The translations under genes were made by a program, and so were the position numbers. From positions 1 to 38,740 of the forward strand of contig MERP01000029.1 of assembly GCA_001772055.1 (NCBI GenBank): a stretch of DNA of 38,740 nucleotides, written 5' to 3'. The DNA comes from Betaproteobacteria bacterium RIFCSPLOWO2_12_FULL_68_19 (lineage in GTDB: Bacteria; Pseudomonadota; Gammaproteobacteria; Burkholderiales; SG8-39). Numbering within the stretch: position 1 is the stretch's first letter; the number at the start of each line of letters is the position of its first letter. The notes below the pieces were generated by a model. The model saw nothing but the letters and a program-made list of their open reading frames with translations, was not told where the DNA came from and ran no database searches. Shown here in pieces: positions 23,374 to 24,098 of this stretch.

Positions 23374-23973
23374 ATGAGGCTTCTTTCGCAAGCTGCCTTC
23401 CGCGCCTCCGCCGCGCGAGCGGCCGATCTGCTGCCCGAAGGCCCGCCCGAGATCGCGTTCGCGGGCCGCTCGAACGTCGGCAAGTCGAGCGCCATCAATG
23501 CGCTCGCCGGCCGCAAGCGCCTGGCGCGCACCAGCAAGACGCCCGGGCGGACGCAGACCATCAATTTCTACGACCTGGGCGAGCATGCCCGGCTGGTCGA
23601 CCTGCCGGGATACGGCTACGCGCGCGTGTCGCAGAGCCTGCGTGCCCAATGGGCCGAGCTGGTCGGGGCTTACTTGCGCTCGCGCAGCGCGCTCGCGGGC
23701 GTGGTGGTGGTCATGGACGCGCGCCATCCGCTCACGCCGCTCGACGTGCAGCTGCTCGACTGGCTCGGCGGCATCCGCACGCTCCTGCTGCTGTCGAAGG
23801 CCGACAAGCTTTCGCGCGCCGAACAGGCAGCGACCCTGAAAAGAGTAGGCACTTTGGTGCAGCCCGAGGCGCGGCTGTTCTCGAGCGTAACGCGGCAGGG
23901 CGTCGACGAATGTCGCGACCTGCTCGAGCGCTGGCTCGCCGAGCAGGCCGCAGGAATAAAAGGCCCCCGGTAA
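23374..23973 (+). CDS. yihA: Ribosome biogenesis GTPase YihA/YsxC/EngB
   Basis: GRSNVGKSS, SKTPGRT, DLPGYGY, SKADK. Confidence 0.96.
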   Translation: MRLLSQAAFRASAARAADLLPEGPPEIAFAGRSNVGKSSAINALAGRKRLARTSKTPGRTQTINFYDLGEHARLVDLPGYGYARVSQSLRAQWAELVGAYLRSRSALAGVVVVMDARHPLTPLDVQLLDWLGGIRTLLLLSKADKLSRAEQAATLKRVGTLVQPEARLFSSVTRQGVDECRDLLERWLAEQAAGIKGPR

Positions 23974-23993
23974 AGGGGATATAAACCGGGGGC
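23955..23993 (-). terminator. Intrinsic terminator of the sRNA
   Basis: Minus strand GCCCCCGGT-13 nt loop-ACCGGGGGC then CTTTTATT; overlaps the last codons of yihA. Confidence 0.8.
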
Positions 23994-24064
23994 GAAAAAG
24001 CCTTAATCTTTGGAATTAAGGCACCCGCTCAGGGAGGAGAAGCGGGAGACGATGAACATCGTCT
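23955..24064 (-). ncRNA. Structured small RNA, probably an anti-hemB RNA motif member
   Basis: Four consecutive hairpins, the last followed by a U-tract on the minus strand. Location upstream of and opposite to hemB matches the described betaproteobacterial anti-hemB motif. Not confirmed with a covariance model. Confidence 0.8.
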
Positions 24065-24069
24065 AAAGG

Positions 24070-24098
24070 TAAGATGGGCCGGCCGGCGGAAAAGTTCC
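24070..24098 (-). promoter_or_regulatory. Putative sigmaE (RpoE/AlgU)-type promoter GGAACTT-N17-TCTTA
   Basis: Close to the GAACTT-N16/17-TCnaA consensus; predicted +1 at about 24064, the first base of hairpin 1. Confidence 0.65.

Follow-up and report, generated by a model that had tools for sequence, protein, structure and literature searches.

The anti-hemB motif was described by Weinberg et al. in 2007 (PMC1950547) and the RNA has been in Rfam since that year without a regulator or a function. An earlier note on the DNA studied here called it a non-coding RNA of betaproteobacteria originally described without a function. That description no longer wholly applies: ncS04 of Burkholderia cenocepacia J2315 is reported to be 105 nt long, with a mapped 5′ end, a northern signal and co-purification with Hfq (PMC5688073, PMC4603805). 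The level of ncS04 was unchanged in all seven conditions tabulated for B. cenocepacia (biofilm, stationary phase, starvation, glucose, NaCl, low pH and low iron), and short exposure of this organism to SDS or H2O2 largely did not induce sRNAs.

MicA, RybB and MicL of Escherichia coli and Salmonella follow a logic in which a sigmaE promoter drives a small base-pairing RNA; none of the three has any sequence or positional relation to the RNA described here. We know of no sigmaE-dependent sRNA described for the beta-proteobacteria, and the literature that we searched contained none. Nor did it contain a published link of anti-hemB or ncS04 to sigmaE, which agrees with the earlier note, whose author knew of no such report.

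Several described RNAs lie beside engB (also yihA or ysxC). Spot 42 (spf) of E. coli occupies the slot between polA and a convergent yihA, and position beside engB is all that it shares with the RNA in our window; to our knowledge, spf is not a sigmaE gene. ErsA, an envelope-stress sRNA of Pseudomonas aeruginosa, is reported to sit in the polA-engB spacer (PMC8575079) and to be transcribed by AlgU/sigma22 (PMC8395346). It resembles the RNA described here in its place beside engB and in the RpoE-homologue type of its promoter, but it is said to pair through a U-rich single-stranded domain (PMC8575079) and not through C-rich loops. sX13 of Xanthomonas, of ~115 nt and downstream of polA, has hairpins with C-rich apical loops like those of the RNA described here; three such loops are reported to be required for the repression of mRNAs that carry G-rich motifs at their start site (PMC3771888). 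Its level goes up in high salt and at 37 °C, it works without Hfq, and it was reported as confined to the Xanthomonadaceae by authors who name no sigmaE-type promoter (PMC3771888).

Here we analyse a window of 38,740 nt (positions 1-38,740 of the forward strand of contig MERP01000029.1, assembly GCA_001772055.1) from Betaproteobacteria bacterium RIFCSPLOWO2_12_FULL_68_19, placed by GTDB in Bacteria; Pseudomonadota; Gammaproteobacteria; Burkholderiales; SG8-39. The best explanation of the locus is, we believe with fair confidence, an anti-hemB/ncS04-family sRNA of ~108 nt at 24064-23955 (-) that is transcribed from an RpoE (sigmaE, ECF02) promoter with a start at about A24064 and whose C-rich loops act in trans. 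What we observe is membership of the family, the fold, conservation of the promoter motif, of the 5′ hairpin and of the loops, and an rpoE-rseA-rseB set with similar motifs at rpoE and rpoH; dependence on RpoE, the start site, the trans mode of action and the type of target are inferred.

An anti-hemB RNA between hemB and engB

A covariance-model search matched the Rfam anti-hemB family (RF02837) to 23955-24049 on the minus strand with 72.1 bits (gathering score 49.5, E 3.7e-15), the alignment spanning the whole model (positions 1-81). The earlier note had proposed an anti-hemB-like sRNA on this strand and had suggested an Infernal search, and its proposal is thereby confirmed. The structural features of the family are found in the window, namely the CUUCUCCUCCCUGAG-loop hairpin, one further hairpin and a terminator hairpin followed by a U-tract, and the RNA lies ahead of hemB, on the other strand. 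The RNA is an orthologue of B. cenocepacia ncS04, with which it has in common hairpins 2-4, the loop sequence, a 5′ hairpin at the very 5′ end and the neighbourhood order hemB, RNA, engB, cytochrome c gene. They differ in the terminator loop, which in Burkholderia sensu stricto is short and lacks CCCC, whereas that of the window is long and C-rich (Table 1). They differ also in the promoter, TATGAT-like in Burkholderia sensu stricto and of sigmaE type in the window. MtvR was ruled out as a name for the RNA, being 136 nt long and, as far as the available description goes, restricted to the B. cepacia complex.

Table 1. Features of the hemB-engB interval and its flanking genes (window coordinates).
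Feature	Position	Strand	Description
engB (yihA/ysxC) GTPase gene	23374..23973	+	TIGR03598, 209 bits (cut-off 124); convergent with the sRNA
Terminator hairpin	23955..23993	-	23993-85/23971-63, 9 bp; 13-nt loop UUAUAUCCCCUUU holding UCCCCUUU; followed by U-tract CUUUUAUU
Hairpin 3	24000..24022	-	24022-14/24008-00, 9 bp; loop CCAAA
Hairpin 2	24024..24046	-	24046-41/24029-24; loop holds UCUCCUCCCUG; near-invariant loop CUUCUCCUCCCUGAG
Hairpin 1 (5′)	24047..24064	-	24064-58/24053-47, 7 bp, 4-nt loop; absent from the Rfam model
Predicted transcription start	24064..24064	-	A24064 (inferred); 5 nt past TCTTA; first base of hairpin 1
-10 element	24070..24074	-	TCTTA, read in sequence; 17 nt past GGAACTT
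-35 element, sigmaE (ECF02/RpoE)-type	24092..24098	-	GGAACTT, read in sequence
hemB (porphobilinogen synthase)	24130..25194	+	NF006762, 489 bits (cut-off 297); divergent from the sRNA

The minimum free energy fold of 24064-23950 (-) has four hairpins at -47 kcal/mol (z = -6.84), and none of 200 shuffled sequences folds as well. The four abutting stems described in the earlier note are therefore present, but two of its lengths do not stand, since it gave 8 bp to both hairpins 1 and 3 (Table 1). Eight pairs in hairpin 1 can be ruled out because only an impossible 2-nt loop would remain. Of 133 orthologous leaders that were folded, 132 form a hairpin of 5 bp or more at this place, and its pair types vary at each position (e.g. 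C-G 64, U-G 23, U-A 17, G-C 7 and A-U 4).

Two of the three hairpin loops covered by the Rfam model are C-rich in the window RNA. To compare them we use "order-level" for loci from the host's order and "class-level" for hits in other gammaproteobacterial families. Among loci found by covariance model, a hairpin loop contains CUCCC in 29/30 at order level and 27/28 at class level, and the last (terminator) loop carries CCCC in 29/30 order-level loci, so that the two C-rich loops, which the earlier note had seen as anti-Shine-Dalgarno loops, are conserved. Of the order-level loci, 120 were gathered by exact match to the loop core, the promoter being no part of the search pattern; conservation of the core in these 120 is thus by construction. 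Complementarity to the Shine-Dalgarno sequence makes the hairpin 2 loop CUUCUCCUCCCUGAG a candidate seed.

hemB and engB share one strand and the RNA gene lies between them on the other, with 32 nt separating the hemB ATG from the -35 element. This setting is widespread: at order level a divergent hemB lies upstream of the RNA in 127 of 145 loci and a convergent engB downstream in 101 of 145, the latter also being seen in 39 of 70 class-level matches. At the distal end, bases 23955-23973 of the sRNA overlap, in antisense, the 3′ end of engB, whose stop codon (23971-23973) falls within the terminator hairpin. When four RNA libraries were compared with 23800-24300, contigs of relatives covered 23943-24054/24076; we do not count them as support because neither start, strand nor transcription can be read from them.

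Promoter type and its conservation

The consensus for RpoE consists of a -35 GGAACTT and a -10 TCnnA spaced by 16-17 nt and ending ~6 nt before the start. Upstream of the RNA the window has GGAACTT-N17-TCTTA and then 5 nt to A24064, and the two elements lie where the earlier note had placed them. That note had put +1 at about the first base of the first stem. The same geometry is given by the mapped 5′ end of ncS04 (sequence from the supplement of PMC5688073) when this is placed on the locus of Burkholderia lata, which favours A24064 as the predicted start. A promoter scan of 23600-24500 returned no sigma70-like site.

The earlier note had also proposed to examine the promoter motif upstream of homologues. 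In 144 unique orthologous loci of the order we searched the 80 nt that precede the RNA core with the strict pattern [GA]AAC[CT][TA]-N15-17-TCNNA, and 102 contained it, against 0/144 on the opposite strand, 0/143 in the 80 nt beyond these and a mean of 0.57 per set in shuffled sets (n=100). Of the 42 loci that fail the strict pattern, some fall into a looser class, AAC-N17-20-TC, which takes in 119/144 loci. In this class the columns that the pattern does not impose are themselves conserved: the two bases ahead of AAC are G and G in 99 and 97 loci, the three behind it T, T and T in 103, 93 and 95, and the fifth base of the -10 is A in 94 of the 119. AAC and TC are 18 nt apart in 63 loci and 19 nt apart in 49, and the sequence of the spacer, unlike the columns that flank it, is not conserved. 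The remaining 25 loci comprise 20 with a Burkholderia-type promoter and five others. Examples of genera with the GGAACTT/TCnnA promoter at this locus are Aromatoleum, Azoarcus, Methylovorus, Vogesella, Paucimonas and Noviherbaspirillum. In Burkholderia sensu stricto, the only lineage to have been studied, the AAC and TC determinants have been lost. Taken together, this comparison strongly supports a predicted promoter of sigmaE type, and the motif is conserved upstream of homologues, the check that the earlier note had asked for.

The pattern extends beyond the order. Related RNAs at polA-engB in many gammaproteobacterial families have the same promoter type and C-rich loops, and the sigmaE-type motif occurs in 49/70 matches from other gammaproteobacterial families (controls 0/70 and 0/70). 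Upstream of these relatives lies polA, reading in the direction of the RNA, in 14/28 and 18/41. Their hairpin 3 loop carries CCCC, and three C-rich loops are found in 17/28 class-level relatives. The polA-engB slot that they occupy is that of ErsA, sX13 and Spot 42.

RpoE in the window's genome

The genome of the window encodes an RpoE equivalog (TIGR02939, 322.7 bits against a cut-off of 236), directly downstream of which lie RseA_N and MucB_RseB genes, giving an rpoE-rseA-rseB set. Upstream of rpoE we find GAACTA-N16-TCTGT in 6/6 loci from five genomes of the genus, and upstream of rpoH GAAC-N18-TCTAA in 5/5, the genomes in both counts being kin and not independent. Genome-wide motif scans were run on the 1.6-Mb, 63%-complete assembly, from which no regulon could be assembled. 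A strict G[GA]AAC scan gave nine matches against ~19 in shuffles. The pattern GAACT[TA]-N15-17-TC[TA]N[AT] gave six, the sRNA and rpoE among them; the ORFs downstream of the other four encode a DUF815 ATPase, RsfS and two products without a family.

Proposed mechanism and alternative explanations

We propose that RpoE, the envelope-stress sigma factor, would start transcription at about A24064 and that the 5′ hairpin, beginning at +1, probably protects the RNA. The C-rich loops CUCCUCCC of hairpin 2 and UCCCCUUU of the terminator would then pair in trans with G-rich ribosome-binding regions and lower the translation of several mRNAs. The pairing step is modelled on the relative sX13, which has been shown to work in this way. 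The earlier note suggested that this may be the sRNA arm of the envelope-stress response; for such an arm repressing envelope mRNAs we find no support. The genome of the window yielded 1118 translation start regions, which were ranked by duplex energy, using home-made gene calls and no accessibility or conservation term. Proteins with a signal-peptide-like sequence numbered 0 in the top 20, 5 in the top 40 and 16 in the top 80, against 15.1% overall, hence no envelope enrichment in this crude scan, which weighs little for or against the idea. Exact complementarity to the RNA of at least 9 nt occurs at 244 sites in the genome, which are mostly intragenic.

The promoter might be read by an ECF sigma factor other than RpoE. 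A second ECF gene lies at 20804-21196 (-), ~3 kb from the RNA, a distance kept in four other genomes of the genus; it belongs to the TIGR02937 superfamily and its best model, PRK12511, scores 129 bits, below that model's cut-off. Moreover, many ECF groups use a -35 that contains AAC. However, the motif is kept in many other families and orders, where the adjoining genes are hemB or polA together with engB, so its reader should be a sigma factor that they all have in common. RpoE/AlgU promoters also have GGAACTT with TCnnA as their signature, which recurs before rpoE and rpoH in the genus, and we regard a different ECF reader as quite unlikely. That the promoter is a constitutive housekeeping one, as seems so in Burkholderia, and that the match to GGAACTT/TCTTA has no regulatory meaning, is a reading to which the flat expression of ncS04 in B. 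cenocepacia lends some weight. The promoter of that lineage is of another type, which weakens this objection to RpoE control but does not dispose of it. Outside Burkholderia sensu lato and Pandoraea it is the sigmaE-type motif that is conserved and not a TTGACA/TATAAT pair, which, with the empty sigma70 scan, makes a constitutive promoter very unlikely. RpoE control predicts that species with GGAACTT/TCnnA respond and that Burkholderia sensu stricto does not; if so, the flat ncS04 expression in one laboratory study would be explained.

The remaining alternatives concern what the RNA acts on. Its main role could be in cis, through head-on transcription against read-through from engB to hemB or as antisense to the engB 3′ end or any hemB leader, tuning hemB (haem synthesis) or engB. 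The opposed orientation of the RNA, the engB stop codon within its terminator hairpin, the linkage to hemB and the lack of a sigma70-like hemB promoter in the scanned interval all fit such a role, and a 2026 preprint proposes antisense control of hemB (10.64898/2026.09.01.748597). Yet the gammaproteobacterial relatives with a same-strand polA upstream have kept loops, hairpins and promoter, and hemB thus cannot be what these conserved parts serve. The loop sequence is, moreover, far more conserved than antisense pairing needs. A principal role in cis consequently seems to us unlikely, and roles in cis and in trans could coexist. Weinberg et al. are reported to have seen comparable covariation in both directions (PMC1950547), and the functional strand might accordingly be the plus strand, as a "hemB motif" acting as a cis-regulatory hemB leader. 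Against this, it is the anti-hemB strand that has the conserved promoter, the terminator with its U-tract and, for ncS04, the mapped transcript, and there are relatives without hemB; we find a plus-strand leader scarcely credible.

Relationship to other RNAs beside engB

We tentatively suggest, while doubting it slightly more than we believe it, that anti-hemB/ncS04, the polA-engB RNAs, sX13, ErsA and, by position, Spot 42 may go back to one ancestral sRNA that was sigmaE-driven, C-rich-looped and convergent with engB. Some lineages would later have rewired the promoter (Burkholderia sensu stricto, enterobacteria) or the seed (Pseudomonas). A promoter type and loop design shared by RNAs next to engB in beta- and gammaproteobacteria would then unite four separately named RNAs in one family, and what is found for sX13 and ErsA could inform studies of the other members. 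If true, the RpoE regulon would have no older or more widespread sRNA than this ancestor.

Family models give the following picture. In a search of 351 nt, the sX13 model (RF02232) aligns end to end with 23957-24063 of the window at 20.9 bits (E 0.061), short of the family threshold of 50 bits, and two gammaproteobacterial anti-hemB-like loci score 40.4 and 37.9 bits with it, also below that threshold. Neither the Spot 42 model (RF00021) nor the Pseudomon-1 model (RF01719) matches the window at E values of 10 or less, and Pseudomon-1 has no match in the window's genome either. Across 151 genomes Pseudomon-1 gave three weak matches, two of which coincide with anti-hemB matches.

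The anti-hemB RNA and its neighbourhood

An Rfam scan places RF02837 (anti-hemB) at 23955-24049, where it scores 72.1 bits (threshold 49.5); no other family passes its threshold anywhere in the window. The element thus belongs to a known RNA family, and this covariance-model search bears out the identity proposed in the earlier note. The minimum free energy (MFE) fold of 24064-23950 (-) consists of four consecutive hairpins (-47 kcal/mol, z = -6.84); 200 shuffled sequences gave no fold as stable. The hairpin coordinates proposed earlier hold overall, with pairings corrected for hairpin 3 and for hairpin 1, where eight pairs were rejected as they would need a 2-nt loop. 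Below threshold, 23957-24056 (-) also matches alphaproteobacterial ar14 (21.7 bits), actinobacterial 6C RNA (17.8) and mmgR/suhB (14.5). All of these have C-rich loops, and the matches probably reflect a common loop design and not descent.

Features of the sRNA locus and its surroundings
Feature	Position	Strand	Remarks
-35 element GGAACTT	24098-24092	-	read in sequence
Spacer	between GGAACTT and TCTTA	-	17 nt, G+C-rich; read in sequence
-10 element TCTTA	24074-24070	-	read in sequence
First base of hairpin 1	A24064	-	5 bases past TCTTA; read in sequence
Hairpin 1	24064-58 / 24053-47	-	MFE fold; 7 pairs, 4-nt loop
Hairpin 2	24046-41 / 24029-24	-	MFE fold; loop UCUCCUCCCUG
Hairpin 3	24022-14 / 24008-00	-	MFE fold; 9 pairs
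Terminator hairpin	23993-85 / 23971-63	-	MFE fold; 13-nt loop UUAUAUCCCCUUU, then U-tract
hemB (porphobilinogen synthase)	starts 24130	+	489 bits; 32 nt from the -35 element
engB (yihA/ysxC)	ends 23973	+	209 bits; end lies within the terminator hairpin
Cytochrome c gene	beyond engB
DsbD protein-disulfide reductase gene	25118-27112	-	580 bits; just past hemB
Dihaem cytochrome c-like ORF	22699-23727	-	dihaem likeness in the C-terminal half; PdsA/CcoP-like matches over residues 164-341
ECF-type sigma factor gene	20804-21196	-	best model PRK12511, 129 bits, below cut-off; ~3 kb from the sRNA

Since hemB and engB both lie on the plus strand and the RNA on the minus strand, the RNA gene diverges from hemB and converges on engB. 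The gene order is shared by Burkholderia cenocepacia J2315, as BCAL0264 (hemB), ncS04, BCAL0265 (engB) and BCAL0266 (cytochrome c4), according to Table 4 of PMC4603805 and the supplement of PMC5688073. With hemB, the cytochrome c gene and DsbD around it, the RNA is set among haem, cytochrome and periplasmic redox genes. The dihaem cytochrome c-like ORF as listed overlaps engB by ~350 nt on the opposite strand, and its real start is probably further in. The distance between the ECF gene and the sRNA is kept in four other genomes of the genus.

The hemB/anti-hemB motif was first described by Weinberg 2007, where the anti-hemB strand was proposed to encode a non-coding RNA because of its terminator (PMC1950547). 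Sass and colleagues report that the B. cenocepacia orthologue ncS04 is 105 nt long with a 5′ end mapped by dRNA-seq, is seen on northern blots and had earlier co-purified with Hfq (PMC4603805, PMC5688073). They describe no significant change of its level in biofilm, stationary phase, starvation, glucose medium, NaCl, low pH or low iron, and in the same study sRNAs were largely uninduced by short exposure to SDS or H2O2. A 2026 preprint (10.64898/2026.09.01.748597) finds the family associated with low-salinity isolates and suggests antisense regulation of hemB. In these publications sigmaE goes unmentioned. Nor did a literature search, with subscription journals outside its scope, find a published sigmaE link to anti-hemB or ncS04. 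What is new here is a proposed regulator of the family and the family's reach.

A sigmaE-type promoter motif is conserved in the order

A search with RF02837 in 41 genomes of the genus and order gave matches in 38 at E ≤0.001 (36 over the cut-off) and contributed 30 loci. An exact loop-core search with one genome per species gave at least 120 loci. The core pattern is present in 149 of the 150 collected loci, L023 being the exception, and 144 loci were analysed once four duplicates and one with too little upstream sequence had been removed. Conservation of the promoter is not built in, because the core pattern used for collection excludes it. A strict sigmaE-type pattern ([GA]AAC[CT][TA]-N15-17-TCNNA, at most 80 nt upstream of the core) occurs in 102/144 loci among the matches listed, against 0/144 on the opposite strand, 0/143 in the next 80 nt upstream and a mean of 0.57 per set in 100 shuffled sets. 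The looser AAC-N17-20-TC at the correct distance defines a sigmaE-type class of 119 of the 144 loci listed. Among columns that the search did not impose, the two positions before AAC are G in 99 and 97 of these 119, the three after it are T in 103, 93 and 95, and the fifth base of the -10 box is A in 94, while the spacer carries near-zero information. Two short kept boxes at a fixed distance with a free spacer are a promoter footprint, and the boxes match the consensus of the RpoE/AlgU group. Both the promoter type read in the window and its expected conservation in homologues are thereby upheld.

Placed on the near-identical leader of a Burkholderia lata locus (L132), the mapped 5′ end of ncS04 falls 6 nt past TATGAT; this is 5 nt past the pentamer that stands where TCTTA does in the window, with the 5′ hairpin starting one base further on. 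From this geometry we infer that +1 in the window is at A24064. Folding gave a 5′ hairpin of at least five pairs in 132/133 orthologous leaders, with a mean energy of -7.9 kcal/mol versus -2.5 for shuffled leaders and several pair types at every position. The 5′ hairpin is kept as structure, not sequence.

The window's genome assembly (63% complete, 1.6 Mb) contains an RpoE equivalog (322.7 bits, cut-off 236), with RseA_N-domain and MucB/RseB-domain genes downstream of rpoE. Like sites appear at two classic regulon members: GAACTA-N16-TCTGT upstream of rpoE at 6/6 loci from five genomes of the genus, and GAAC-N18-TCTAA upstream of rpoH at 5/5 loci of the genus, counts that are non-independent because the genomes are close kin. 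The pattern GAACT[TA]-N15-17-TC[TA]N[AT] occurs six times in the 1.6-Mb genome, two of these being the sRNA and rpoE.

Among the matches listed, 20/144 loci share GGTATAT[CG]AT instead; these come from Burkholderia, Paraburkholderia, Caballeronia, Trinickia, Pandoraea and two MAGs. GAAACTT and TCATA at sigmaE-like spacing are still found in most Paraburkholderia and all three Pandoraea loci. AAC is lost in Burkholderia sensu stricto, Trinickia and Caballeronia, and TGATA takes the place of TCATA in the first two but not in Caballeronia. What is left is TATGAT, a -10 element at canonical sigma70 spacing to the mapped start. Loss of the sigmaE-type boxes in Burkholderia sensu stricto fits the flat expression of ncS04, and the switch may explain why a sigmaE link went unseen where the RNA was studied. 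As the promoter differs, Burkholderia data are no test of this link in the window's lineage.

Relatives across the class and a proposed role

Beyond the window's own genome, the class-level sample took a single genome per family from 150 further families, one of them within the window's order, for a total of 151 genomes. Anti-hemB matched at E ≤0.001 in 76/151 genomes, 10 over the cut-off, and 70 matches outside the order were examined. Loci L181 and L182, from two unpublished genomes (G155 and G077), are among those counted here for matches, motif, engB and polA, and no claim depends on them alone. The strict sigmaE-type motif lies within 110 nt upstream of 49/70 matches, with 0/70 in each of two controls; by score it accompanies 22/29 matches at ≥41 bits, 16/22 at 35-41, 10/11 at 30-35 and 1/8 below 30. 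Just downstream, engB is convergent in 21/29 and 18/41 matches outside the order, and the gene immediately upstream, in the RNA's own orientation, is polA in 14/28 and 18/41. When 20 such loci were scanned against the whole of Rfam, the RNA scored best with anti-hemB in every one (20/20), and the sX13 model also matched two (40.4 and 37.9 bits).

The polA-engB slot is known for other sRNAs. Precisely the same convergent layout is seen in E. coli, with spf (Spot 42) between polA and yihA/engB. ErsA of P. aeruginosa is placed in the polA-engB spacer (PMC8575079) and reported to be transcribed by AlgU/sigma22 (PMC8395346, PMC7565897). Xanthomonas sX13 is described as lying downstream of polA, at a locus that its authors liken to that of Spot 42, and as confined to Xanthomonadaceae; its three C-rich loops repress mRNAs with G-rich start regions, it acts without Hfq, and its level is raised by high salt, growth at 37 C and minimal medium (PMC3771888). 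The window RNA resembles ErsA, sX13 and Spot 42 in design and, by inference, in control. By score it belongs to none of the three: the sX13 model aligns end to end, yet at 20.9 bits. The Pseudomon-1 model gave three weak matches in the 151 genomes, two coinciding with anti-hemB matches. Common descent with these RNAs is a hypothesis.

Taken together, the analysis shows the RNA's family and structure, conservation of its promoter boxes, 5′ hairpin and C-rich loops, and an RpoE system in the genome. CUCCC stands in a loop in 27/28 of the better class-level matches, and 17/28 have three C-rich loops. An sRNA with a sigmaE-type promoter and C-rich loops is confirmed as an observation; the earlier note was right on identity, promoter type and loops, while RpoE dependence and an envelope role stand as proposals. 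In the working that we propose, RpoE released under envelope stress would drive transcription of the RNA with A24064 as its start. Hairpin 1 and the terminator would stabilise the transcript, and its loops, possibly assisted by Hfq, would base-pair with G-rich Shine-Dalgarno regions of several mRNAs and so reduce their translation. In a crude scan of 1118 start regions, signal-peptide proteins were not enriched at the top of the duplex ranking (0/20, 5/40 and 16/80, compared with 15.1% overall), a result that is no counter-evidence to the envelope idea because the scan is too crude. Because of its overlap with engB here, the RNA may also act in cis on engB or hemB; such an effect, however, fails to explain conservation where polA replaces hemB.

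Two gammaproteobacterial loci, L179 (G161:C1:904217-904516) and L209 (G087:C1:1014049-1014443), carry two tandem anti-hemB-like copies upstream of engB. In L209 the copies follow polA and come with one sigmaE-type motif each; a porin ORF lies upstream in L179. In L199 (genome G150) and L207 (genome G144) the RNA sits in reverse orientation between engB and polA, following engB on the same strand and facing polA. One gammaproteobacterial genome has a c-di-GMP-I riboswitch (77.9 bits, L174:2037-2121 (-)) between polA and the anti-hemB-like RNA; a 2026 paper reports a link between c-di-GMP and ErsA activity in Pseudomonas. Lastly, this beta-proteobacterial RNA occurs in MAG records titled Bordetella parapertussis, Enterobacteriaceae, Klebsiella pneumoniae, Patescibacteria or Bifidobacterium (L032, L038, L061, L078, L090, L124 and L130), which look like mislabelled or contaminated bins.
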